From Bdellovibrionales bacterium (GTDB lineage Bacteria; Bdellovibrionota; Bdellovibrionia; Bdellovibrionales; UBA1609), in assembly GCA_965205645.1 (NCBI GenBank), contig OZ242172.1:896122-960121 (forward strand): a DNA stretch of 64,000 nt. Reading direction: 5' to 3'. The position numbers and the translations under genes were made by a program. Shown piece by piece: positions 4,441 to 61,690 of this stretch (positions are counted from its first letter, which is position 1; each line of letters starts with the position of its first letter). The notes under the pieces are model-generated. The model saw only the letters and a program-made list of their open reading frames with translations. It did no database searches and had not been told where the DNA came from.

Positions 4441-5835
4441 TTAGTAAAAGTGGTTATTTGGTTTAAGTTTAGCTTTAGCAATTCCACGATTACGATAAAA
4501 AAAGGCATAATCAGGTTTTAATTCAATAGCTTTACTACAATCATTTATTGCATCTGCATGCTGACCTAAGTGTGATTTAGTAATTCCACGGTTATTATAA
4601 AACAAAGCTTCATTAGGTTTTAATTCAATAGCTTTGCTAAAATCATTTATTGCATCTGCATGCTGACCTAAGTGTGATTTAGCAATTCCACGACTATTAT
4701 AAGCCATGGCATAATCAGGTTTTAATTCAATAGCTTTACTACAATCATTTATTGCATCTGCATGCTGACCTAAGTGTGATTTAGTAATTCCACGGTTATT
4801 ATAAAACAAAGCTTCATTAGGTTTTAATTCAATAGCATTATCGTAATCATCTATAGCATCTGCATGTTGACCTAAGTGTGATTTAGCAACTCCACGACTA
4901 TGATAAGCCATGGCATAATTAGATCTTAATCCAACAGCTTTATTGCAATCATCTATAGCATCTGCATGCTGGCCTAAGGATGATTTAGCAATTCCACGGC
5001 TATTATAAATATTCGCATTATTAGGATCTAAATTAATAGCCTTGTCAAAAACCTTAATAGCTTCTTTGTATTTTCCTTTTTTAATTTCAGTGTTAACTTG
5101 ATGTTCAGCTTCTTTCATTAAAATTTTACCTCTACGAAACTCAATCTGAGCTGATGAATAATTTTCAGGTATAATAATGTTGTGTTTTATAAGAAATTTT
5201 TTGTCAGATGCTTTTCTTGCATTAAGCAATCTCATTCCCACATCTATAATAAACTGAGTCCAATTGTTGTCAGAAGCAACAAGAAAAGGCACATTAGATG
5301 ATGTAATAGGTTCACTAACAAGTGTAATAGTAGTACCCATTATATTATCTTTTCTTTTTTCTGGGTTAATAATATGAGCTCCTTCTTTATCTGCTATATG
5401 ATTTAAAATCATATGAAGTGTTTGGAGTTTTGACTTATGATAAAGAAGAGGTTCATCCAACCACTGGTTAAGACTTACCAAATTACTTTCACCAATTGCT
5501 TTATGCAGTATATCCACTCGATTCAAGTAAAAAGCAGATGTGACCGTGTGGCTATTGGATTCAGTTTTCTTTGTGTTTTCTCGAGGGTTTAAAAAAGATT
5601 GTAACAATATATCTGCACCATCACCATAATAGAGTTCAAATAGAGACTTATTATTCTTTTTTCCTTTTTCAATAAAGGTTGCTGGTGCATTCTTGTCTAA
5701 AAGTAATTTCCTCAATTCTACTGCTACGGTACGATACACTGAATTATCTTCCTCAAAGACATAAGCTTTGATATTTCTTTTTATAATATTAATGGAATCT
5801 TGCACTCCTCTTTTCAGCTCAAACATTTCACTCAT
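4441..5835 (-). CDS. TPR-repeat protein with an unassigned ~230-aa N-terminal domain
   Basis: 464 aa with RBS AGGAG. The C-terminal half has about seven consecutive 34-aa TPR units (NSRGIAKSHLGQHADAI.D..KAIELKP...). The N-terminal half matches no family I recognise. Confidence 0.8.
   Translation of the reverse strand: MSEMFELKRGVQDSINIIKRNIKAYVFEEDNSVYRTVAVELRKLLLDKNAPATFIEKGKKNNKSLFELYYGDGADILLQSFLNPRENTKKTESNSHTVTSAFYLNRVDILHKAIGESNLVSLNQWLDEPLLYHKSKLQTLHMILNHIADKEGAHIINPEKRKDNIMGTTITLVSEPITSSNVPFLVASDNNWTQFIIDVGMRLLNARKASDKKFLIKHNIIIPENYSSAQIEFRRGKILMKEAEHQVNTEIKKGKYKEAIKVFDKAINLDPNNANIYNSRGIAKSSLGQHADAIDDCNKAVGLRSNYAMAYHSRGVAKSHLGQHADAIDDYDNAIELKPNEALFYNNRGITKSHLGQHADAINDCSKAIELKPDYAMAYNSRGIAKSHLGQHADAINDFSKAIELKPNEALFYNNRGITKSHLGQHADAINDCSKAIELKPDYAFFYRNRGIAKAKLKPNNHFY
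4504..4911. repeat. intragenic 204-bp tandem duplication (two TPR pairs) inside the TPR gene
   Basis: The string GGCATAATCAGGTTTTAATTCAATAGCTTTACTACAATCATTTATTGCATCTGCATGCTGACC... starts at both 4504 and 4708 (offset 204 nt). The first ~125 nt of the two copies are identical. Confidence 0.9.
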
Positions 5836-7376: not shown

Positions 7377-7931
7377 TTATTTTTTCTTATTTTTATGTCC
7401 AGAATGTTTCTTATTCTTATGCCCAGAATATTTATGTTTGTATTGTTCAAAACATTTAGAGAGAGCAGCTCTTTGTTCTTCCGTTGTAGCAATTGTTTCT
7501 AAAACGTTTTGCCGAAATGTGGACCATGCAGCTCGTCTGTCTTCTTTATTCATATCATGAGTGGAGGATTTAACATGGTTGCGCATTTCTATCATTTTTG
7601 CTTTTTGTTCGTCAGAAAGTCCCGCTTCTTCCGGACAGAATTTTTTTCTTCTTTCCCCTTTGTGTTTATATTGTTCAAAACATTTAGAGAGAGCAGCTCT
7701 TTGTTCTTCCGTTGTAGCAACTGTTTCTAAAACGTTTTGCTGAAATGTGGACCATGCAGCTTGTCTGTCTTCTTTGCTCATATCATGAGTGGAGGATTTA
7801 ACATGGTTGCGCATTTCTTTCACTTTTGCTTTTTGTTCGTCAGAAAATCCCGCTTCGGGACAGAAATTGGAGCGTGCATATACTGATGCTGTGAAAAAAA
7901 ACAGGCAAATGATGATAACATTTGTTTTCAT
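7377..7931 (-). CDS. secreted CpxP/Spy-like (LTXXQ-type) protein with two tandem domains and a His/Lys-rich tail
   Basis: Signal peptide MKTNVIIICLFFFTASVYA. Two ~77-aa repeats each carry CPEAG(F/L)SDEQKAK...TTEEQRAALSKCFEQYKHK, that is two xxxEQ (LTXXQ-like) motifs per domain. The tail reads YSGHKNKKHSGHKNKKK. RBS AAGGAG. Confidence 0.6.
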   Translation of the reverse strand: MKTNVIIICLFFFTASVYARSNFCPEAGFSDEQKAKVKEMRNHVKSSTHDMSKEDRQAAWSTFQQNVLETVATTEEQRAALSKCFEQYKHKGERRKKFCPEEAGLSDEQKAKMIEMRNHVKSSTHDMNKEDRRAAWSTFRQNVLETIATTEEQRAALSKCFEQYKHKYSGHKNKKHSGHKNKKK

Positions 7932-29170: not shown

Positions 29171-30157
29171 ATGAAAAACAAATTTCATATGAGAAATAGA
29201 TCTCATATAAGGAAAAAACCAACTTTTAGTCATGACAGTTTTTTTAAACATTTTTATTCTGATCCAAAGCTTGCTCAAGAATTGTTACAGCTTATCTTTT
29301 CAAAAAAGGAGCTCTCTGCTTATGATTTACAACAGTTAAAAATAGAAAAAGACAGCTTTGAAGATAAAAGAGTTGATCTTATTTTTTCTATTCCTTTTAA
29401 GGTTCAGCCTAAAATTAAACTGGAGCTTTTAGTTCTTTTAGAACATAAATCGTTTCATGATAAAAATTTATTTAGCCAGCTTTTAAAATACCAAGTCTTA
29501 GTTCGGGAACACAGCATCCAACAAAGGGGTTATCCTCAGCCTATCATTCCTGTGCTATTTTATCATGGGAAGCAGCCTTTGAAGTGGAGAAGATCTCTTC
29601 AGGAAGAGGATTTTAAGTCCTTGTTTTCTAAGATTCCTGTTGAATCCAGAAAACATATGTTAAACTATGAGTTAAAGATAATAAACACTCAGGATTCAAA
29701 GGTACGAGAAGCTTATAAAGGTCATCAATTAAAAGGTCGTGGTGTTATAAGGCTGTTATCTGAGGTATGGAGTATAAAGAAACCTACTCCATTAAAAGTA
29801 AAGGAAGTGTTTACTGAATTTGAAGACATATTAAAAAAATTAAAAGGCAAGAAAAAAGAAGAGATGAGTTTAAGGATAGTTCAATACTTGATAGATAATA
29901 CAGGGTTAGACTTTAAGACGTGGAAAGAAGCTGAAGAATTAATGATAGAAGAGGGGATTTTAACGAGGGGAGGTGTTATGGACATCAGAGAGTTTATTAA
30001 AGAACAAGGTCGTTGGGAAGGTCGGCAACAGCTTATTTTAAATATGCTGAAAAAGAAGGTAGATATTGCTTTTATTTCAGAGGTAACAGGATTGTCTGAA
30101 AAAGAAATAAAAAAGCTTAAGAATGGTTCTGATTCGAGGATAGCGGGTCGCCGCTAA
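29171..30157 (+). CDS. Rpn/YhgA-like recombination-promoting nuclease (PD-(D/E)XK, Transposase_31 family)
   Basis: HDSFFKHFYSDPKLAQELLQ...RVDLIFSIPF...LLVLLEHKSFHD...LLKY...PIIPVLFYHGK..W matches the Rpn family pattern. The last codons run into a repeat copy. Confidence 0.8.
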   Translation: MKNKFHMRNRSHIRKKPTFSHDSFFKHFYSDPKLAQELLQLIFSKKELSAYDLQQLKIEKDSFEDKRVDLIFSIPFKVQPKIKLELLVLLEHKSFHDKNLFSQLLKYQVLVREHSIQQRGYPQPIIPVLFYHGKQPLKWRRSLQEEDFKSLFSKIPVESRKHMLNYELKIINTQDSKVREAYKGHQLKGRGVIRLLSEVWSIKKPTPLKVKEVFTEFEDILKKLKGKKKEEMSLRIVQYLIDNTGLDFKTWKEAEELMIEEGILTRGGVMDIREFIKEQGRWEGRQQLILNMLKKKVDIAFISEVTGLSEKEIKKLKNGSDSRIAGRR

Positions 30158-30311
30158 TACTTGCTTGGCGAAACATAATTTACAAGATAGTGGCAATAAC
30201 GTAAATGAAGTCGCATCGAAAATGTCTCCCGCGACTCGCGGGCATAATTTACAAGATAGTGACAATAATGTAAATGCAGCCGCGTCGAAGCATCCTCCCG
30301 CGATCCGCGGG
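30140..30311 (+). repeat. GC-rich modular repeat: partial unit + 2 x 69-nt units downstream of the Rpn-like gene
   Basis: 69-nt units start at 30174 and 30243: CATAATTTACAAGATAGTG(G/A)CAATAA(C/T)GTAAATG...CCCGCGA(C/T)(T/C)CGCGGG. The HNLQ reading frame stays open across both although the locus is intergenic. Confidence 0.9.
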
Positions 30312-30403
30312 CTGGACTTAAGGTGTAGAATAGCATGATAAAAGTGTTAATTTATCACTTGTCTAATTTTTTTATTATGCTGTTTCGGTTTTTCGTTTAA
30401 ATT

Positions 30404-44235: not shown

Positions 44236-44447
44236 CGTATGTGATTAGGGACTTAAAGGCATATAGTAGCAGTGAGCAACGGGAAGTAAGAGCATCATTG
44301 AGAGACTAGTAACCGTATGTGATTAGGGACTTAAAGCATATCGTAGCAGTGAGCAACGGGAAGTAAGAGCATCATTGAGAGACTAGTAACCGTATGTGAT
44401 TAGGAACTTAAAGCATATCGTAGCAGTGAGCAACGGGAAGTAAAAGT
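44236..44447 (+). repeat. 2.7 tandem copies of a 77/78-nt unit forming the rplO-secY spacer
   Basis: Units start at 44236, 44314 and 44391: CGTATGTGATTAGG(G/A)ACTTAAAG(G)CATAT(A/C)GTAGCAGTGAGCAACGGGAAGTAA(G/A)AG... The third copy ends at the secY ATG and carries its RBS (GGGAAG). Confidence 0.95.
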
Positions 44448-45761
44448 ATGGCACAGAATTTTTCATTTCCAAAAGATTTACGCAAAAAAATATTATTTAC
44501 CTTAGCTGTGTTGATTATTTATCGGGTGGGAGTGCAGGTGCCAACTCCTGGGGTAGATCGTGGTGCACTGATGGATTTTTTTGCTAATCAGGGTGGTGGC
44601 GTATTAAATATGCTAAATACTTTTACAGGTGGTGCACTAGAACGATTTAGTATTTTTGCATTAGGTATTTTACCTTATATTACAGCGTCTATTATTTTTC
44701 AATTACTTCAAACAGGGGTACCTTATCTAGAGCAGTTGAAAAAAGAAGGGGAAGCTGGCCGAAGAAAGATTAACCAATACACTCGTTATTCCACTGTGTT
44801 GTTTTCTATTGTGCAAGGTTATGGCATTGCAAAGATGTTACTTTTGCAATCACCGGCGGATGGTCGTTCACTAGTTACTTCTCCGATGGTTGGCTTTATG
44901 TCGTTTGAATTGTTTACAATTATTACTTTAACAGCGGGTGCTTGTTTAATTATGTGGTTGGGTGAACAAATCAATGAGCGGGGAATTGGTAATGGAGCAT
45001 CCTTAATTATTTTTGCCGGTATTGCTGCAGGGATTCCGTCTGGTATGATGAGTTTATTTAAGATGACCGGACGTGGACAAATCACAGGTGGTTTATTAAT
45101 CGGTCTCGTTTTATTTATGATATTAATTGTGGGAGTGATTATCTTTATTGAAGTTGGTCAAAGAAGAATTCCTATTCAATATTCACAACGATCGATGGGT
45201 AAACAGCCTTCTGCACAGAGCTCACATTTACCTCTCAAGCTAAATTTTTCTGGTGTCATCCCACCTATTTTTGCATCTAGTTTATTATTATTTCCTACAA
45301 CATTAGCTCAGTATGTGAATCAACCTTGGGCACAGAAATTAAGAGATATGTTAACGCCGCAGAGTTCACTATTTAATATTTTATTTGTTGCGATGATTGT
45401 ATTCTTTTGCTTTTTTTATACAGAAGCGGTATTTAATCCAACAGAAGTATCAGACAATTTAAAAAAATATGGTGGCTTTATTCCAGGTATTCGAGCCGGC
45501 CGGAGTACGGCGGATTATATCAAACGAGTGTTGGATCGTCTGACAGTTGGAGGCGCTATCTATTTAAGTGTGATTTGTATTATTCCAACTTTGTTAATTG
45601 ATAAAATGAACACACCATTTTATTTTGGTGGGACCAGTTTATTAATTTTAGTTGGGGTATCTTTAGATACAGCACAACAAATTCAATCGCACTTGCTAAC
45701 TGCTAAATATGAAGGGTTTGTTAAGGGTGTACGAGTAAAAAGTCGACGTGTGCAATACTAA
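44448..45761 (+). CDS. secY: preprotein translocase subunit SecY
   Basis: 437 aa with 10 TM segments. SIFALGI.PYITASII.QLL and GE.I.E.GIGNG.SLIIF.GI motifs. Confidence 0.98.
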   Translation: MAQNFSFPKDLRKKILFTLAVLIIYRVGVQVPTPGVDRGALMDFFANQGGGVLNMLNTFTGGALERFSIFALGILPYITASIIFQLLQTGVPYLEQLKKEGEAGRRKINQYTRYSTVLFSIVQGYGIAKMLLLQSPADGRSLVTSPMVGFMSFELFTIITLTAGACLIMWLGEQINERGIGNGASLIIFAGIAAGIPSGMMSLFKMTGRGQITGGLLIGLVLFMILIVGVIIFIEVGQRRIPIQYSQRSMGKQPSAQSSHLPLKLNFSGVIPPIFASSLLLFPTTLAQYVNQPWAQKLRDMLTPQSSLFNILFVAMIVFFCFFYTEAVFNPTEVSDNLKKYGGFIPGIRAGRSTADYIKRVLDRLTVGGAIYLSVICIIPTLLIDKMNTPFYFGGTSLLILVGVSLDTAQQIQSHLLTAKYEGFVKGVRVKSRRVQY

Positions 45762-48398: not shown

Positions 48399-49394
48399 AT
48401 GTCACTTGTCATACATAGAGAATATTTATCGCTTAATTATGATCCGGAAGAGATTCCTGTGGCATTTTTAGTGTTACATTATACGGCAGCCAGTTTATCT
48501 GGAACGTTGCGAATCTTTCAAAATCCTCGTTCTCGCGCCTCTTGTCATTTAATTTTAGATATGGATGGTTCTGTGTATGAATTAGTTCCTTGTTTGGATG
48601 GAAAGTGTTTAAAAGCCTGGCATGCCGGGGAAAGCTATTGGCCCGTGTCGACAGTTGATGTGCATAATTTGCAAGGTAGCGACAATAACGTGAAAGAATC
48701 TGCGGCAAAAATGTCCTCTATGACCCGCGGGGCACAGAAATCTGCGCAGACGCTTACTGGTAAACATGATGTGCAAGGCAGTGACATAGGTGCAGGGAAT
48801 CGCGGCGGCGGTGAGTCGCCGCAGACGCTTACTGGTAAACATGGTGTGCAAGGCAGTGACATGGGTGCAGGGAATCGCGGCGGCGGCGAGTCGCCGCAGA
48901 CGCTTACTGGTAAACATGGTGTGCAAGGCAGTGACATGGGTGCAGGGAATCGCGGCGAAGTATCCCCCCCGATTCGGGGGTTTAATGGGTTTTCTATTGG
49001 TATTGAGTTAGTTAACAGGAACGGCAATTTATTTCCTTATACAAAGGCGCAATATCGTTCTTTGGCTTTAATATGTAAGAGGCTACAGCGCTATTATAAA
49101 GCTCTATGTAACCCTGAGCGTGTTTTAGGGCACGAGCATATTGCGGGGTATAGGGGCAAGGTGGATCCGGGGCATTGTTTTGATTGGTCTTTATTTTTTA
49201 AAATGAGCTATGGATCATCAGATATTTTAAATAGAGAGCCAATTTTATCTAGTGAAGCTTGTAGCCGATTTTCGGAGTTATCTTCTCGGTTTTTGAGCTT
49301 AGGAGGTTGTCGGGACAAAGATTGGGTGCTATTAAATCGTCAGATGGAGCAGGCAGCTCAGTTAGAGCAGGCTTCTGCTCATTCACATCGTTGA
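48399..49394 (+). CDS. ampD: AmpD-like N-acetylmuramoyl-L-alanine amidase (Amidase_2) carrying a 106-codon in-frame repeat insertion
   Basis: LVLHYTA, HLILDMDG.VYELV, AWHAGESYW [insert] FNGFSIGIELVN...Y....Y..L......L......VLGHEHIA..RGKVDPG..FDW. Confidence 0.85.
   Translation: MSLVIHREYLSLNYDPEEIPVAFLVLHYTAASLSGTLRIFQNPRSRASCHLILDMDGSVYELVPCLDGKCLKAWHAGESYWPVSTVDVHNLQGSDNNVKESAAKMSSMTRGAQKSAQTLTGKHDVQGSDIGAGNRGGGESPQTLTGKHGVQGSDMGAGNRGGGESPQTLTGKHGVQGSDMGAGNRGEVSPPIRGFNGFSIGIELVNRNGNLFPYTKAQYRSLALICKRLQRYYKALCNPERVLGHEHIAGYRGKVDPGHCFDWSLFFKMSYGSSDILNREPILSSEACSRFSELSSRFLSLGGCRDKDWVLLNRQMEQAAQLEQASAHSHR
48663..48980 (+). repeat. GC-rich modular repeat array inside the ampD-like gene
   Basis: One 69-nt-type unit (CATAATTTGCAAGGTAGCGACAATAACGTG...GACCCGCGGGG) is followed by 75-nt units starting at 48747, 48822 and 48897. 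The array ends GGAATCGCGGCGAAGTATCCCCCCCGATTCGGGGG. The total is 318 nt, or 106 codons. Confidence 0.95.
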
Positions 49395-53816: not shown

Positions 53817-54587
53817 ATGAAAACAAGAAAATGGTTACTGATATACACATCACTGCTACTGCTAGTGCTAATGAACTGTCAGGTGTTTAAAGCAAATAGA
53901 AAGCCGCAATCTGCAGGTTTTAGAGGGTATTGCCCCAATTGTTTAGTAAAAAGTATTGGTAAAGATGTAAAACAACTGCAAAAAATAATACAAAAAAGTA
54001 ATCTAAAATTAGTTGATCATCAGCCTGTTCAAACTCCTCCTATCGATCGTTCTAGTAACAGTTCTCATACATGGTCATGCTCGTTTGCCTGCGAATGGTT
54101 TAAAAATGGATCAAGAGATGGATACATTATAACAAAACACGGTAGCTCCACAAAAGAGGTAGTGCTGGCAGCACAAAATAAATGCCGGACAGACACTGAT
54201 TATAAAGGGGTTCTTATTGACAATCTAGTATGGGGCAGCTACGAGCGTTTTATTCCTCTTCAAATCAGCATTCGTAGTTCTTGTTCCAAAAATTCTACCT
54301 CCTCTCAGCCCCAGCGTTTCTCTTGTATAGCTTATTCCGCAGAGGTTGTTCCTGTACATGTCGCAAATCATTACCATGATGGCTGGCTTTGGAATAATTA
54401 TACAGTTCCTGTTATTAGGAATAAAATTTTTAAGAATCTTGAAGTGTCTTCTGGACCGACTATGAAGGAAGCCTTTAGTCAATTGATGAGTAACAAACAG
54501 TATCGCACTTTGATTGTATCCAGCAGTGTACACTATACAGAAATTGTTCCTGTGAAATCTCCAGAAGAAGTTTGCGTCCAGAATTAA
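53817..54587 (+). CDS. lipoprotein sharing only the long-form leader module of the VPNFA-IHK family (P4, chimeric)
   Basis: The first ~70 aa are homologous to P2, P3 and P6: LMNCQVFKANRKPQSAGFRGYCPNCLVKSIGKDVKQLQKIIQKSN. The remaining ~185 aa are an unrelated Cys-containing domain. Confidence 0.75.
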   Translation: MKTRKWLLIYTSLLLLVLMNCQVFKANRKPQSAGFRGYCPNCLVKSIGKDVKQLQKIIQKSNLKLVDHQPVQTPPIDRSSNSSHTWSCSFACEWFKNGSRDGYIITKHGSSTKEVVLAAQNKCRTDTDYKGVLIDNLVWGSYERFIPLQISIRSSCSKNSTSSQPQRFSCIAYSAEVVPVHVANHYHDGWLWNNYTVPVIRNKIFKNLEVSSGPTMKEAFSQLMSNKQYRTLIVSSSVHYTEIVPVKSPEEVCVQN

Positions 54588-56251: not shown

Positions 56252-56965
56252 ATGAATAAAACAATTTGTCCTATTTGTGGGTCAAAAGTAAAGGCGGCTG
56301 GTCGCACTGTATTTTGTCAGTGTGGTTGGCACAAATCTTTTAACCATGCAAATGGTTTACGGATACAAAAAGGGATTACCACACACTTAATAATAGCTGG
56401 GTTTGTGTTAATGGGCTCTGTTGTACATTTAAGTGAATGGGGATCTTCTTCTCTATCCATCGTGTCTTTAAAAGCACGTCAATGGACAGGCTTACTTACT
56501 AAGCAAGCTTATGCAGATTTAAAAAACACTTGCATGAACTTGAAAAAATATGATTGTGTTGAAAGTGCTCATCAGTCATACTTCCGTTCTTCCAACGATT
56601 TATCTGCTTTGCACGCTCTAGGAGAGTTGCAATACCGTAGAGGTTCATTGGATGAAGCGAAAGAAACTTACACACTGTATTTTACAAAAAAAGGTAAAGA
56701 AGTGAAAGCTGCTTACAACTACGCTCAGATTTTAGAAAAATCTGGAAATACTCAACAGGCTTTGGGTTATTACAAATACGCTTTAAAAGCTAGCCCAGAA
56801 GTAGCACAAGTGAGTGTTATGCGTGCTTACATCAACTTGCTTATTAAAAATGGCCAACACGCCAAAGCAAAAGCAGAGCTTAGTAAATTTCAATCTATGG
56901 TTAAGAAATCTACTTCTTTAGTACAGAACAAATTTCAAAACTGGAAAAAACAAGTTAGATCTTAA
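56252..56965 (+). CDS. zinc-ribbon / single-TM / TPR-like domain protein
   Basis: RBS AGGAGG. The N-terminus reads CPICG....14....CQCGW, followed by a TM segment (LIIAGFVLMGSVV) and TPR-like helices. Confidence 0.7.
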   Translation: MNKTICPICGSKVKAAGRTVFCQCGWHKSFNHANGLRIQKGITTHLIIAGFVLMGSVVHLSEWGSSSLSIVSLKARQWTGLLTKQAYADLKNTCMNLKKYDCVESAHQSYFRSSNDLSALHALGELQYRRGSLDEAKETYTLYFTKKGKEVKAAYNYAQILEKSGNTQQALGYYKYALKASPEVAQVSVMRAYINLLIKNGQHAKAKAELSKFQSMVKKSTSLVQNKFQNWKKQVRS

Positions 56966-56990: not shown

Positions 56991-57022
56991 AAAAGCCGGA
57001 TTTTTTATCCGGCTTTTTTTTT
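56991..57022 (+). terminator. Rho-independent terminator
   Basis: GCCGGA (56995-57000) and TCCGGC (57008-13) form a hairpin followed by T9. Confidence 0.85.
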
Positions 57023-57365
57023 ACCCCCAAAGGGGCCGCCCCCAGAGGGGGTGACTTCGCCGCGATTCCGCTGCTTCCATGTGACAACTTTGCATATCAT
57101 GTTTACCAATAATGTCTCCGGCGACCCGCCGCCCCCAGAGGGGGTGACTTCGCCGCGATTCCGCTGCTTCCATGTGACAACTTTGCATATCATGTTTACC
57201 AATAATGTCTCCGGCGACCCGCCGCCCCCAGAGGGGGTGACTTCGCCGCGATTCCGCTGCTTCCATGTGACAACTTTGCAAATTATGTTTACAAGTGTCT
57301 CCGGCGACCCGCCGCCCCCACGATTCCGTTGCACGCATGTCACTATCTTACAAATTATGTTTAAC
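57023..57365 (-). repeat. intergenic array of the GC-rich modular repeat: 3 x 93-nt units + one terminal unit (reverse orientation)
   Basis: A 93-nt periodicity was verified at 57044, 57137 and 57230. On the minus strand each unit reads AAACAT(G/A)AT(A/T)TGCAAAGTTGTCACATGGAAGCAGCGGAATCGCGGCGAAGTCACCCCCTCTGGGGGCGGCGGGTCGCCGGAGAC... Confidence 0.95.
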
Positions 57366-57429: not shown

Positions 57430-58206
57430 TTATTCTGAATCGGATTCTGTATTTTTATAAATGATGGCTGCTACACCTTTTACTGCATCTGTTACAGTGT
57501 AACAGATGGAACCAATCATCGTTGCCATAGAAAACAGTATATTTCCATGTAGCCTACCTAACTTGGTGACTAATTTATTGATTTTTCTATTTCTTTCTAT
57601 AGAGTCCTCTGGCCAATCATCTCTAATATGCTTTCTAACCTGTTCAAACTGATAAGAAAAATGTGCCGAGGAAACTGCTGAGCTTGCTCCCACAACAGCT
57701 GCGGTTGCGCCTTTGTTCGTAGGGTAAGATGTATGTTCATTATCAGTCATTGCATGACGACTGCCTGCACCTAAGGCACACACTGCAAATCCACCTGCTA
57801 CGTATTTCCACGCAGATTTATGAATATGGGATTTATCATTATTATTGAGGACAATATTATTTTTAGCCACCTGCCTAAGCTGGTTTAAATATTGATCGGG
57901 GCAGGAAGGAAGATCCAATTGCCTTGCTATAGAAGATATTTCTTGATCAAATTCATTTGTTGGATGGCTGGTTTTTGTGTTGCTTAGTTTAGCAAAATTC
58001 GGCACTAGATCCGGGTGGTTTATTAAGTCTATGTGACAAACTGGTGTTCCTTTTTTATCTAATACAATAGCTGAACGTACGGGAATCCGTGTTTTATCTG
58101 CTGAATATTGTAATATTTCGTTATTTGCTTGATAGTTTCTCCATCCTGGTAGCACTAGCAGTAATGATAGTAAGTAAATAATCAAAGATAATTTTTTTAT
58201 TTTCAT
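57430..58206 (-). CDS. VPNFA-IHK paralog family member P5, short form
   Basis: 258 aa. LPGWRNYQ, VRSAIVLDKKGTPVCHIDLINHPDLVPNFAK, DLPSC..YLNQL..VAKNNIVLN...SHIHKSA, FAVCALGAG, and the tail SICYTVTD. Confidence 0.8.
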   Translation of the reverse strand: MKIKKLSLIIYLLSLLLVLPGWRNYQANNEILQYSADKTRIPVRSAIVLDKKGTPVCHIDLINHPDLVPNFAKLSNTKTSHPTNEFDQEISSIARQLDLPSCPDQYLNQLRQVAKNNIVLNNNDKSHIHKSAWKYVAGGFAVCALGAGSRHAMTDNEHTSYPTNKGATAAVVGASSAVSSAHFSYQFEQVRKHIRDDWPEDSIERNRKINKLVTKLGRLHGNILFSMATMIGSICYTVTDAVKGVAAIIYKNTESDSE

Positions 58207-58594
58207 TTTTATTCCCTTTAAAAAAGTAAGATTATTTATCTTAGTAGATAGTGCAGTACATACTATATTTTCCTAAGAGAAATAAAAATCATATTTTAAT
58301 AGATAAATTGCAGAAATATGTATAAAAAATATACTCAATGAAAAATTTTCACTCTTGATTAAAATCTATATAACAAGCTGAATAGCTATTTTTATCTACT
58401 ACAATAGCTGGTTGCATTTAAATAGGTTGATTATTTTACTGAATGAAAATCATCTAAGGCTTTATAGAGTAAATCATCTGTTACAGATTCATACACAGCT
58501 ATAGTTATTTTTATTCCTATATAGAAAATGTGCCGATTTTTAATGTTGCACTAATATTTTGATAAATTTTTTATAGCATATTTATAATAACTAT

Positions 58595-59539
58595 TTAATT
58601 TATCGGTGTGGGTTGGCTAGGTGAATCATTTAACTGTTGTGTTTCATTGAGTTCCTGTATTACTTCTTTTATGATTGGAATTATTTGATATACATCATAG
58701 AGGACTAAGCCTATTTCCGTTCCAATATAACAAAATGCACCAATCTTGACTGCTTTTTTTGCCATTTGGCGATCTATCTTGTCAGCACCGGGCAGTCGTT
58801 TTGTTAAAGTGTCAGTGACAGAAAAACGACTGGATTGAAAAGTATGGTACATGTTACGTATTTTATCTTTCACTTTCTCTGGTATTTTTTTTATTACATA
58901 TCCACCGACTACTCCACCAATAATAGCTGTGTCCATTATGTTATCATCAGTTGTATTTTCGGTTGCACGAATGGCATAGGCGCTACTGGCACCTATAAAG
59001 CAAGCAGCAGCACCGGCTGCGAGATTTTTTTTTAACTTTACTTTGTGGATATATGATTCATTACCATTAATTACTACATTTTTTTTTGCTACTTTTTTAA
59101 GCTGACTTAAATATTTACCAGTGCAAGGAGGTAGATCAGATTCATTTGCTACAGAAGCGGGTCTTCTTTGTGATCGAATGATTTTTTGATAGACCATTTT
59201 TTGTGTAATTGGTTTCGCAAAATTCGGTACCAGATCAGGGTGTTCCATAAAATCTACGCGGCAAATTACATCTCCATTTTTATCTAGTACTACTGCCGAT
59301 CGCGCTTCAATAGGTGTTTTAACAGGCGGATGGTTATTTGGATTACTTTTCTGTATCGTATTTTTTAATTCTTTTAAGTCTTCGTCTAGGCGTCCCACTA
59401 AACAGGTTGAGCAATACCCTCCAAAGCCTGCTGACTGTGGCTTTCGCTGTATTTTTTGTGCAGAAAACATCTGACAGCTTATTAGTACAGGCAATAGCAA
59501 TAATAGATATGTAAGGCACAATAATCTTTTTATTTTCAT
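58595..59539 (-). CDS. VPNFA-IHK paralog family member P6, long form (lipoprotein)
   Basis: 314 aa. Lipobox LISC, leader KPQSAGFGGYCSTCLVGRLDEDLKELKNTIQKSNP, the core, AIIGGVVGGYVI, and the tail GAFCYIGTEI followed by an extra C-terminal segment. Confidence 0.8.
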   Translation of the reverse strand: MKIKRLLCLTYLLLLLPVLISCQMFSAQKIQRKPQSAGFGGYCSTCLVGRLDEDLKELKNTIQKSNPNNHPPVKTPIEARSAVVLDKNGDVICRVDFMEHPDLVPNFAKPITQKMVYQKIIRSQRRPASVANESDLPPCTGKYLSQLKKVAKKNVVINGNESYIHKVKLKKNLAAGAAACFIGASSAYAIRATENTTDDNIMDTAIIGGVVGGYVIKKIPEKVKDKIRNMYHTFQSSRFSVTDTLTKRLPGADKIDRQMAKKAVKIGAFCYIGTEIGLVLYDVYQIIPIIKEVIQELNETQQLNDSPSQPTPIN

Positions 59540-60027
59540 ATTTTTTCTTTTTAGCCTTTTAAAAAGGTTATTTAATTAATTATTTCGGTTTTTACGAATG
59601 TAGAGTTAAAAAATATAATATATATATAAAAATCAAAGTACAATGTGCTCTTAATCTATAAAATTCGACTGCTTTTTAAACAAAAAGGAGTTGGTAATAG
59701 TAAAGATAGATATATCATCAAAAATGTTTTTATTTCTATGTTCTAATTTCTTAAAATTTTATCGTTTTACTTAACTACTTTTTAATATTTAATTAGATTT
59801 TGTTTTTAAAGAACTTAATCTTAGAAAATAAAAATAGTATTTATTTTACTAAAGTTCAATTAAAGGCTTTTGGAACAAACCGGATTAGTGAATAGGGAAA
59901 ATAATAGTGATTGATTATATATATTTTTATAGCATATCAGAAAAAGTTGACTCAGTGCAGTGGTTTATTTATATAGCATTCATATTAAGTTTATCCAACA
60001 GTATAGATACTTTGTGTAAGCGCTTAT

Positions 60028-60717
60028 TTGCCAAGTATGATTTGTAGGATCATAGTAATGATGTGGATGCAACTGAGAATAATTAATTTATTGCTGTGTT
60101 TGGTAGTAGGGCATGTGGCAGTCGCTCGGATAATGACTAGTCAATTACCTCAAGATTTTACACCACGGGCAATTATTATGACTGATGATGTATTATTATC
60201 AGAAGTTCAGAAATATGAACAAGTTTTTAATAATGAATATGTTTTACAAGATAAGGACATTCGTGAAATAGAATCACTCATATTTAATTCACAGGATTTA
60301 CAAATTAGTGACATAGATATGGAGAAATGGCAGCAACAGCGCTCCATTTGGAGGCAGCAGATGTTATCTTCTTTAGAAAGACCATCTTATGTTCATTTAA
60401 CGCATTGGCTGCAGCATTTGCGGTATCCTATAATTAATTGTTTATTAGCTGCTTCTGCAGCAATGACACCACGGGTGTTTCTTAATGAAGAACACAGCTC
60501 GTATGTTAGAATACTTGCTTGGTTAGTAGTGTTTGATGTGCTTATTCGCCCTCGTGTGAAAATAATAAAGCAATTAAAAAATGGGGAAATGAATTTAGAT
60601 GATTCAATACTTAGTAATAAAAATACTTTTAAAAGTATGTCGTCAATATTAGCGGGTACTTGTTTTATAACTATGGAAGGATTAATTTTAATATTTGTAG
60701 AGTCGGATCAAACATAA
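60028..60717 (+). CDS. hypothetical membrane protein, possible very divergent relative of the paralog family
   Basis: 229-aa ORF with a TTG start; an internal ATG is possible. It has an N-terminal hydrophobic segment. CLLAASAAM and the C-terminal LAGTCFITMEGLILIFVE resemble AACALGASG and AATCYFITDVGRVLYIEY of P7. Confidence 0.4.
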   Translation: MPSMICRIIVMMWMQLRIINLLLCLVVGHVAVARIMTSQLPQDFTPRAIIMTDDVLLSEVQKYEQVFNNEYVLQDKDIREIESLIFNSQDLQISDIDMEKWQQQRSIWRQQMLSSLERPSYVHLTHWLQHLRYPIINCLLAASAAMTPRVFLNEEHSSYVRILAWLVVFDVLIRPRVKIIKQLKNGEMNLDDSILSNKNTFKSMSSILAGTCFITMEGLILIFVESDQT

Positions 60718-60865
60718 TGTTTAAAAAAATAGTCACTGATTAGTTATTATTTTACAAAATGTTCAAATGACATCTACTTGGGGTTTCTTATTAAAATCTA
60801 AGTAAGTGAGTTATTTATTTTTTCGAAGTGATGATCATTAAGTTAGATTAAAAAATCTACTTTAG

Positions 60866-61690
60866 TTACCATGAATTGTATTCAATATAGAGAACTCTAC
60901 CTACATCTGTTATAAAATAACAAGTAGCTGCTGAAGCTACTGCTGTCCAACTTGATAAATGTTTACGTAAGTTAGCTAATTTCGTCATTATTTCTTTTTT
61001 TTCAGAACTGGAAATAGCACTATTGTTGAGATCTTTTATTAGGTCTTTAATAAGCGCATGTATGCCTATTGATATTCCAATACCTCCTCCTATGGGCATA
61101 GTTGCAGCCATGCCTCCTGGTGTCAGAAGAGGAAGTTCAGTTATAGGAGCAGGAGGAGGTAGGGGATACGTTTTACCATTTTGATCTGTTATAAAATTTT
61201 CTCTTTTATAAGGTTCCGGCCAGAGATAATTTTGAATGTAATAACCACTTGCACCTAAAGCGCAAGCCGCCAAGCCAATCACTACATTTTTTTTCAAATT
61301 TGTTTTATAAATATGCGATAAATCATCATTCACAATAATATTATCTGTTGCTATTTTTTTTAGCTGATTTAAATATTTATTTGTACAAGAGGGTAGATCT
61401 AATTCCTCCGTTATGGGGATCGATTCTCTTTGTAGTTGATTTGTTTGATCGTCTATTTTTCTTGTACTAAGCTGTGCAAAATTTGGCACTAAATCCGGAT
61501 ATTCTGCTAAATCTATGCGACAAGCATGTTTCCCTTTTTCATCTAATACAATCGCAGAATTTACTGGAATAGTAGCTTCCGTAGATGAATATTGGTACGC
61601 TTTACTACTTGCTTGGTAATTTCGCCAGCCAGGGAGAATCAACAATAATGATAATAAATAAATGATTTGTGATAATTGTCGTGTTTGCAT
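60866..61690 (-). CDS. VPNFA-IHK paralog family member P7, short form
   Basis: 274 aa. LPGWRNYQ, VNSAIVLDEKGKHACRIDLAEYPDLVPNFAQ, DLPSC..YLNQLKKIA, LAACALGASG, a Pro-rich then Gly-rich (PIGGGIGISIG) variable part, and the tail ATCYFITDVG. Confidence 0.8.
   Translation of the reverse strand: MQTRQLSQIIYLLSLLLILPGWRNYQASSKAYQYSSTEATIPVNSAIVLDEKGKHACRIDLAEYPDLVPNFAQLSTRKIDDQTNQLQRESIPITEELDLPSCTNKYLNQLKKIATDNIIVNDDLSHIYKTNLKKNVVIGLAACALGASGYYIQNYLWPEPYKRENFITDQNGKTYPLPPPAPITELPLLTPGGMAATMPIGGGIGISIGIHALIKDLIKDLNNSAISSSEKKEIMTKLANLRKHLSSWTAVASAATCYFITDVGRVLYIEYNSW

Follow-up and report, generated by a model that had tools for sequence, protein, structure and literature searches.

The window analysed here, a 64,000-nucleotide stretch of DNA from a Bdellovibrionales bacterium (contig OZ242172.1, positions 896,122 to 960,121 of the forward strand), carries between its positions 57430 and 61690 a cluster of three minus-strand genes that encode members of one protein family. 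These are a short form, P7 (57430-58206; 258 amino acids, aa), a long form, P6 (58595-59539; 314 aa), and a second short form, P5 (60866-61690; 274 aa). An original prediction made for this DNA had named the same three members, and the outer limits of the open reading frames (ORFs) match it exactly, while BLASTP comparisons confirmed that the three are paralogous.

The cluster occupies an interval bounded by bioA and by a gene for a zinc-ribbon/TPR protein (56252-56965). P5 lies downstream of bioA and is convergent with a plus-strand gene (60028-60717; 229 aa), which is located in the 59540-60865 interval between P6 and P5 and leaves flanks of 488 base pairs (bp) and 148 bp. P5 is upstream of P6, beyond this opposite-strand gene; when the cluster is read in the direction of transcription, P7 comes after P6, with a spacer of 388 bp between them. 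The order of genes given by the original prediction (short form, plus-strand ORF, long form, short form) is therefore correct, and the spacers are AT-rich as it had stated (G+C content 14-23%, versus 34-37% in the genes of the cluster), but the largest of its spacers of approximately 390 to 1300 bp contains the plus-strand gene. Its further statement that P6 is followed by P5 did not hold, because the next gene after P6 in transcription is P7 and P5 lies upstream. That a long form is immediately followed by a short one is right for the order of P6 and P7, except that a decayed family fragment sits between them.

Three other copies are encoded elsewhere in the window, also on the minus strand: a short form (22407-23126; 239 aa; previously labelled P1) and a long form (23309-24121; 270 aa; previously P2) adjacent to rpoC and separated by 182 bp, and a solitary long form (27945-28742; 265 aa). 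The six are mutually paralogous in all-against-all BLASTP of the window ORFs (E-values of 1e-25 to 1e-58), and each is full-length, with its own start and ribosome-binding site. A six-frame scan of the window with a hidden Markov model (HMM) of the family found these six intact copies and no more, along with a gene at 53817-54587 which shares only the first ~74 residues with the family.

Alignments of 6, 12 and 32 members revealed how the two forms are built. Long forms start with a lipoprotein signal, L-x-[S/G]-C-Q (for example MKIKRLLCLTYLLLLLPVLIS-C22-Q), followed by an N-module of ~45 aa with a CxxC motif (RKPQSAG..YCxxCL...D.D...L...IQ). All three long forms of the window have the features of a lipoprotein signal, namely a positively charged n-region, a hydrophobic h-region and the pattern [LVI][ASTVI][GAS]C, here at Cys21 or Cys22 (P6, LIS-C22; 23309-24121, LMG-C21; 27945-28742, LVS-C21), and the lipobox, in the pattern scanned, is present in 15 of the 17 long-clade proteins from elsewhere that carry the RKPQ..CxxC N-module, the remaining two having the off-pattern LPGC and SSGC; one family member also gives a weak match to Pfam PF08139 (LPAM_1). 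The signal of the short forms closely resembles that of the long ones; it ends in LPGWR, so that a Trp replaces the lipobox Cys, and the N-module is absent. No lipobox Cys was found in the short forms, where P[GS]W[RK] stands in the place of the [SG]C-Q of the long forms; the LISC string at residues 6-9 of the short form P0030 is too N-terminal for lipobox function. The suggestion of the original prediction that an anchored lipoprotein is involved is thus borne out for the long forms, as far as a canonical lipobox can tell.

Both forms share a core of ~95 residues (VRSAIVLDKxGxPVCxVDLxxHPDLVPNFA ... LPPCxxKYLxxLKxVAxNN), whose end is marked by an S-x-IHK motif. The C-terminal half is variable and contains two to three hydrophobic segments rich in Gly, Ala and Ser, together with a charged helix. 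Across the 32 members, the cysteines C93, C139, C180 and C270 (P6 numbering) are invariant or nearly so. In P6, the lipobox LIS-C22-Q is followed by the N-module (~30-66, with C43xxC46), the core (~75-170, with C93 and C139), hydrophobic helices at ~173-190, 200-217 and 263-280 (with C180 and C270) and a unique C-terminal tail. P7, whose signal ends in LPGWR and lacks the lipobox Cys, retains the core and the C-terminal hydrophobic module (Cys 57, 102, 143 and 235); in P5, with the same signal ending, the variable linker carries a Pro-rich insertion. AlphaFold2 run with the 32 sequences models the core with high confidence (predicted local distance difference test, pLDDT, ~90) as several beta strands and one helix, and the C-terminal half as long helices of lower confidence; an earlier model from 12 sequences (pLDDT 52) was too poor and was not used. 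A C93-C139 disulfide probably staples the core domain. Since four cysteines are conserved, we infer two disulfides and, from them, an extracytoplasmic location; the C-terminal half is predicted to insert into the membrane or to lie against it, and may oligomerise.

The N-module is also found apart from the family. The plus-strand gene at 53817-54587 encodes a lipoprotein with the same lipobox and CxxC N-module (aa 1-74) as the long forms, joined to a different, Cys-rich C-terminal domain, and the lipobox with RKPQSAG..YCxxC N-module heads unrelated passengers in other contigs as well (L005, 4920-5669; L002, 3229-4092; L023, 570-1562). In a library of 1.84 billion cluster representatives, ~25 match the N-module alone. 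This suggests that the N-module serves as a movable lipoprotein leader that is restricted to this lineage.

We found no link between the family and any characterised one. Scans of the window proteins against Pfam, NCBIfam and PADLOC yielded sub-threshold noise only, as did a Pfam scan of the 32 aligned members; a sequence profile search of PDB gave no match, and Foldseek comparison of both AlphaFold models with PDB gave no significant one (best E-values 0.6-0.95). NCBIfam NF053611 (YiaD_Gzip_OmpA) was matched twice, far below its cut-off of 175 bits (13.8 and 12.7 bits; E-values 0.035 and 0.077), and none of the 32 members matched the Pfam glycine-zipper families (PF05433/PF13488) at E ≤ 0.1. 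We take the similarity between the Gly-rich helices and the YiaD glycine zipper as compositional and not as family membership.

The plus-strand gene within the cluster is 229 codons long when read from a TTG, with a likely start among the Met codons at 60058-60067. Its product begins with a signal-like stretch and contains three hydrophobic segments as well as two conserved cysteines. Because a syntenic ortholog lies between the TPR gene and bioA in the sponge relative L005 (228 aa, 34% identity, E-value 3e-34) and dN/dS (the ratio of non-synonymous to synonymous substitution rates) is ~0.5, we regard it as a real gene. A homology search with its product returned only this ortholog and a fragment from the sister strain. 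The protein collection does not contain the exact protein of the window, which is hence apparently unannotated. Its motifs P-S-YVHL..W...C and GTCFI.MEG mirror the S-x-IHK...C.LG and CY.GTE of the family, hhalign aligns it with the family over 123 columns (probability 54%, E-value 1.2e-4), and the HMM of the family C-terminus scores it at 10.0 bits and its ortholog at 17.6 bits versus a maximum of 4.9 in 4000 shuffles. The gene is thus probably a distant relative of the family that shares its C-terminal module. Given that it stands alone in the corresponding interval of the sponge relative, the three family genes of the cluster may be later arrivals.

The recurrence of a long form followed by a short form at two loci, rpoC and the present cluster, had led the original prediction to suggest a functional two-gene unit. 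In the form weighed here, a lipid-anchored long protein and the product of the downstream short gene would act together, for instance as a heteromer, and the unit would have been duplicated to both places. In the window, a long and a short gene follow each other at rpoC, the copy at 27945 is alone, and P5, the opposite-strand gene, P6, a relic and P7 lie between bioA and the TPR gene. The relatives are arranged differently. In the sister strain L001 (~95% DNA identity), rpoC is followed by a single long gene and a second long gene stands alone; two more solitary long genes are present in the sister strain on L025, in the same contig. In another strain, L004, P6 is flanked by short genes on both sides (short, P6, short). 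Among the sponge relatives, L021 has a long and then a short gene at rpoC, with the long one frameshifted and internally deleted; in L005 a long gene adjoins an N-module gene, and its TPR-bioA interval contains the opposite-strand gene only; L023 carries a solitary short gene (P0038). The more distant metagenomic L007 and L008 have solitary long genes, one of them between bioA and the TPR gene. Hence, over all loci compared, eight of the twelve long genes lack a downstream short gene, P5 and P0038 are solitary short genes, and the long-then-short order recurs at two loci only and is stable at neither. At rpoC it is found again in the sponge relative L021, but it has been lost in the sister strain. 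Moreover, by our calculation the two long-then-short adjacencies of the window, with its three long and three short copies, have a chance probability of ~0.1, so the recurrence alone is not significant. Conserved long/short adjacency is thus largely absent from related genomes, which is the outcome that the original prediction had itself named as counting against it.

The spacers and the phylogeny bear on the same question. The P6-P7 spacer contains decayed family fragments on the minus strand (58355-58529), one resembling the core (AIVVDKNSYSACYIDF) and one the C-terminal motif (IFYIGIKITIAVYES), both interrupted by stops; they score 17.5 bits with the family HMM versus a maximum of 4.8 in 300 shuffles and were seen also by tblastn and as a copy of the DNA repeat D4 (58362-58410). 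Similarly, the 182-bp spacer of the rpoC pair (23127-23308) holds a relic of the lipobox and N-module (9.6 bits versus a shuffle maximum of 5.2). A neighbour-joining tree of the core separates a clade of short forms (PGWR) from a clade of long forms, and orthologs of the rpoC short gene from different species cluster together, which argues that the long and short forms are old subfamilies rather than products of recent truncation. The coexistence of both subfamilies in every sampled relative is what one would expect of a two-gene unit; however, P6 does not pair with the rpoC long gene in this tree, nor P7 with the rpoC short gene, as duplication of a whole unit would predict.

The sequences upstream of the genes differ as well. 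A CCGAAATA motif on the minus strand (59581-59588) is located 49 nucleotides (nt) upstream of the P6 start codon, and the corresponding CCGA[A/T/C] motif precedes ten of the twelve long genes at 39-68 nt, with an eleventh at -15, and three of the four N-module genes at -53 to -69. None of the eight short genes is preceded by it, nor is the opposite-strand gene. These counts are to be read against a background of 18 in 182 AT-rich windows and the fact that the compared genes are related by descent and do not represent independent samples; the motif nevertheless persists where the flanking sequence has diverged. This suggests that promoter, signal peptide and N-module move jointly, as one 5' cassette, and that the long genes are driven separately from the short ones. 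The motif resembles the -10 element of sigma-28 promoters, GCCGATAA; no TAAA is present at the expected 15-nt spacing, so that the sigma-28 reading was dropped and serves as a lead only. Taken together, the varying content of the bioA-TPR interval, the sister strain devoid of the rpoC short gene, the frameshifted L021 partner, the decayed genes within both spacers and an upstream motif confined to the long genes make an obligate two-gene unit quite improbable in our opinion, in spite of the same-strand long-then-short order at both window loci and its presence in L021. Variability, which the original prediction had also raised in the form of a variable pair, did find support, since the family differs between strains.

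Some of these differences point to recombination. In the rpoC pair, the 3' halves of the two genes contain patches of up to 93% DNA identity, and their C-terminal protein identity reaches 56% versus 15-30% for other paralog pairs, a pattern we read as gene conversion. The strain contig L004 shows no difference from the window across P6, the spacer and the region for the P7 signal peptide; at ~58142 the identity falls abruptly to ~70%, and dS along its P7 allele is 0 before this breakpoint and 1.19 after it; so sharp a break argues that a divergent allele has recombined in. That strain also carries an additional short gene on the upstream side of P6. We also considered the rpoC gene of L001 as a clean fusion of a long and a short gene; it is ~73% identical to both in the 3' half, and a simple hybrid was not demonstrated. 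The contigs behind these strain comparisons are metagenomic; their names carry labels of 2x to 4x, which we read as coverage, and they contain obvious frameshifts. In L003 (~98% identical to the window, labelled 4x), split genes, bioA among them, look like errors, and its apparent pseudogenes were left unused.

Upstream of several long paralogs (28790-28830 and 24170-24210 in the window; also in L001 and L025) we noticed a conserved element of ~100 nt composed of TTAATTAAATCAAATATTTACC, a C/T tract and ATGTTTCTTCTTTTAAAATCCGAATAC... The boundary between poly-C and poly-T shifts from copy to copy (C8T10, C9T9, C10T8) and the total is constant at 18, which indicates substitution rather than slippage and thereby speaks against slippage-based switching; phase variation by homopolymer slippage was rejected on these grounds. 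Inverted repeats of the invertible-promoter type were not found, only weak AT-rich ones.

Such observations invite the view that the family is a dedicated system of antigenic or phase variation, in which recombination among the copies or slippage at promoters would switch between alternative surface antigens, as in Vlp/Vsp of Mycoplasma or the outer-membrane multigene families of Anaplasma and Ehrlichia. The mosaic P7 allele, with its breakpoint at the end of the signal peptide, is the kind of mosaicism this view predicts, and the copy-number differences between strains, the conversion of the rpoC pair, the hypervariable C-terminal half, the C/T tracts and the presence of Rpn-type recombination-promoting nuclease genes beside two long copies are in line with it. 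However, all six copies are complete and no silent cassettes feed a single expression site; the coding regions of the family contain no tandem repeats, and no convincing inverted repeats flank the promoters. The constant C/T total, a dN/dS below 1 throughout and the low coverage labels of the contigs from which the strain data come weigh against it too. We therefore hold a dedicated variation system to be unlikely.

The dN/dS values also bear on a further view, that these are dispensable paralogs, left over from duplication in a reducing genome and turning into pseudogenes with no specific role. Alleles give ratios of 0.2-0.6 and distant orthologs 0.5-0.7, versus 0.19 in the TPR neighbour; to judge from these figures, the family proteins are constrained yet fast-evolving. 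The relaxed values of 0.5-0.7 for some orthologs, together with the spacer relics, the frameshifted long copy of L021, fragments in L002 and the presence or absence of copies among strains, would fit decay. On the other hand, the six ORFs of the window are intact and keep the invariant cysteines and motif positions, dN/dS in the core is 0.2-0.4 and indicates purifying selection, and the family with both its subfamilies persists in relatives in which a conserved protein encoded nearby has diverged by 17-34%. Given this, mere decay is a highly improbable account of the cluster as a whole.

The family is narrowly distributed. A word-indexed search of 5.8 billion protein clusters returned nine proteins, three of them from the source genome, a record of 1,555,701 bp, and the rest from ENA metagenome assemblies, and an exhaustive profile search of the 1.84 billion cluster representatives gave 68, ~30 of which are full-length; many of the others match the N-module only, fused to other domains. 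Scans of GTDB genomes and JGI metagenomes with the family pattern detected no member. The zinc-ribbon/TPR gene has relatives at 51-59% identity in closed Bdellovibrionales chromosomes of 1.4-2.3 Mb, which are metagenome-assembled genomes (MAGs) and represent the nearest public relatives of the host. Their genes run in the order M23-SHMT-RpiB-DHOase-TPR, as in the window, but no family member lies within 10 kb of the TPR gene in the 12 Bdellovibrionales MAG loci compared, which suggests that the family is confined to a narrow clade within a small-genome lineage. One relative is from a sponge metagenome, and a literature search on small-genome Bdellovibrionales symbionts of sponges found nothing specific.

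Our collective results lead us to consider it probable, with moderate confidence, that the cluster belongs to a lineage-specific, fast-evolving envelope family exported by Sec, which grows, recombines and decays, and that it is not an obligate long-plus-short operon. This reading builds on the paralogy, the common architecture, the restricted distribution, the gain, loss and mosaicism among strains, the relics in the spacers and the upstream motif that sets long genes apart from short ones. Export and lipidation are predicted from sequence, as are the disulfides, the insertion into a membrane and a role at the surface or host interface. Long forms would be anchored by lipid through the lipobox Cys and would have a portable CxxC N-module together with a conserved upstream element of its own, while the non-lipidated signal of the short forms, ending LPG/WR, would be cut by signal peptidase I or retained as an anchor. 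The present series of short gene, opposite-strand gene, long gene, relic and short gene would then be the outcome of local tandem duplication, of recombination or gene conversion and of gene decay within a variable interval between bioA and the TPR gene. The proteins would most likely act at the cell envelope or host interface, where recombination among copies and strains would generate diversity.

Several points weigh against this reading. The long-then-short order at rpoC is kept in a fairly distant relative (L021), and adjacency there possibly has some selective value; no terminator-like site is predicted between P6 and P7, so read-through co-transcription of the two is possible, which would also suit a two-gene unit. 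The C-terminal helices are moderately hydrophobic (Kyte-Doolittle peaks of 1.3-2.0) and could form a soluble, disulfide-stapled bundle instead of membrane segments. Localisation and function have no homology support, with Pfam, NCBIfam, PADLOC, PDB and Foldseek all blank, and some of the strain differences could be assembly errors or chimeras.

A bolder possibility, to which we assign rather little weight, is a hitherto unrecognised modular surface-protein system of small-genome, probably animal-associated Bdellovibrionales-type bacteria, in which a 5' cassette (the CCGA promoter element, the lipoprotein signal and the CxxC N-module) would be swapped by recombination onto different passengers. 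Lipid-anchored long versions and short versions with a free N-terminus, both built of the same Cys-stapled domain with a membrane-hairpin module, would co-assemble variably as hetero-oligomers at the host interface, and the opposite-strand gene would represent a third, strongly diverged class of that module. If, as the preferred reading of an exported and recombining family holds, these are proteins of the envelope or host interface, they would be candidate factors in the way this poorly studied lineage interacts with its hosts, and the shared lipoprotein 5' cassette would mark a regulon of exported proteins. In addition, annotation gains from the apparently unannotated gene at 60028-60717, from the hidden decayed paralogs in the spacers and from two defined subfamilies.

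Other features of the window and its relatives deserve mention. An Rpn/Transposase_31-type gene (29171-30157) stands head-to-head with the solitary long paralog at 27945-28742, and a second Rpn copy (90% DNA identity) stands head-to-head with another long paralog in the sister strain (L025, 5616-6602), so that the module of long paralog and Rpn gene seems to have been duplicated. In more distant Bdellovibrionales MAGs (L014, 10700-13720; L018, 10700-15190) the TPR-bioA interval holds quite different genes, among them those for a pentapeptide-repeat protein, PRPP synthetase, a methyltransferase and its partner, and a SecG-like protein that contains a long 'KDTKQP' repeat; from these contents the interval appears to be a general hotspot for variable content.

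Directly downstream of P7 lies a GC-rich tandem repeat of 3.1 copies of 93 bp (57035-57320), which would fall in the 3' region of P7, ahead of a bidirectional terminator-like hairpin (56991-57017). Tandem repeats with units of 69-93 bp recur at 24561-24789, 30174-30312 and 48745-48957 and in L002 (9191-9493). The arrays at 24561 and 30174 have a near-identical 69-bp unit, the one at 57035 contains a similar CATGATATGCAAAGTTGTCACA stretch, and that at 48745, situated within an Amidase_2 ORF (48399-49394), looks related by eye. The 24561-24789 array, 3.3 copies of a GC-rich 69-bp (23-codon) unit ('HNLQSSDNNVSEATAKVSPATRG'), is in frame in an exonuclease III-type (Exo_endo_phos) ORF (24408-25436) between the conserved N- and C-terminal blocks, and its copy number or sequence differs in the sister strain and the sponge relative. 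It recalls the Rickettsia palindromic elements, which insert in frame into genes. Translations of similar repeats precede family genes in other relatives, as N-terminal extensions of P0031 and P0039. An intergenic repeat between the ribosomal-protein block and secY (44448-45761), with 2.7 copies of 77 bp at 97% matches (44236-44443), looks by eye unrelated to this repeat family. Further tandem repeats lie inside two minus-strand ORFs, at 4474-5009 (ORF 4441-5835; units of 102/204 bp) and 7431-7856 (ORF 7377-7931; unit of 228 bp), which probably encode repeat-domain proteins.

Among the closest known systems are the multigene families of surface or envelope (lipo)proteins in small-genome, host-associated bacteria, for example Mlp, Erp and Bdr of Borrelia, the OMP-1/P28/Msp2 arrays of Ehrlichia and Anaplasma, and Vlp/Vsp of Mycoplasma. 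Like these, the present family consists of lineage-restricted tandem paralogs with AT-rich spacers, a conserved export signal and a variable mature region, a lipobox in part of the members, recombination or gene conversion between copies, and copy numbers that differ among strains. It differs from them in having no similarity of sequence or fold, its members being built of a small Cys-stapled domain with C-terminal Gly/Ala-rich helices, and in lacking a layout of expression site and silent cassettes, coding repeats or slippage-prone promoter tracts; surface exposure is here predicted only. Glycine-zipper lipoproteins (SlyB/PCP, the Rickettsia 17-kDa antigen, YiaD) share the N-terminal lipobox and the Gly/Ala/Ser-rich hydrophobic helices (here AGAAACFIGASSAYA, IIGGVVGGYVI and MPIGGGIGISIGI), whereas our family has the reverse domain order, with the soluble domain ahead of the helices, conserved cysteines lie inside the helices, and there is no OmpA-like domain. 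Chlamydial Inc proteins, which have a bilobed hydrophobic domain and a type III secretion signal, are likewise lineage-specific, fast-evolving, clustered paralogs with paired hydrophobic segments in a small-genome bacterium (host association being presumed in our case), but the present proteins carry Sec-type or lipoprotein signals and likely disulfides, their hydrophobic segments are 70-90 residues apart, and no homology exists. The family itself is thus new and uncharacterised, while its mechanism follows the familiar pattern of duplicating and recombining surface proteins and does not constitute a new kind of system.

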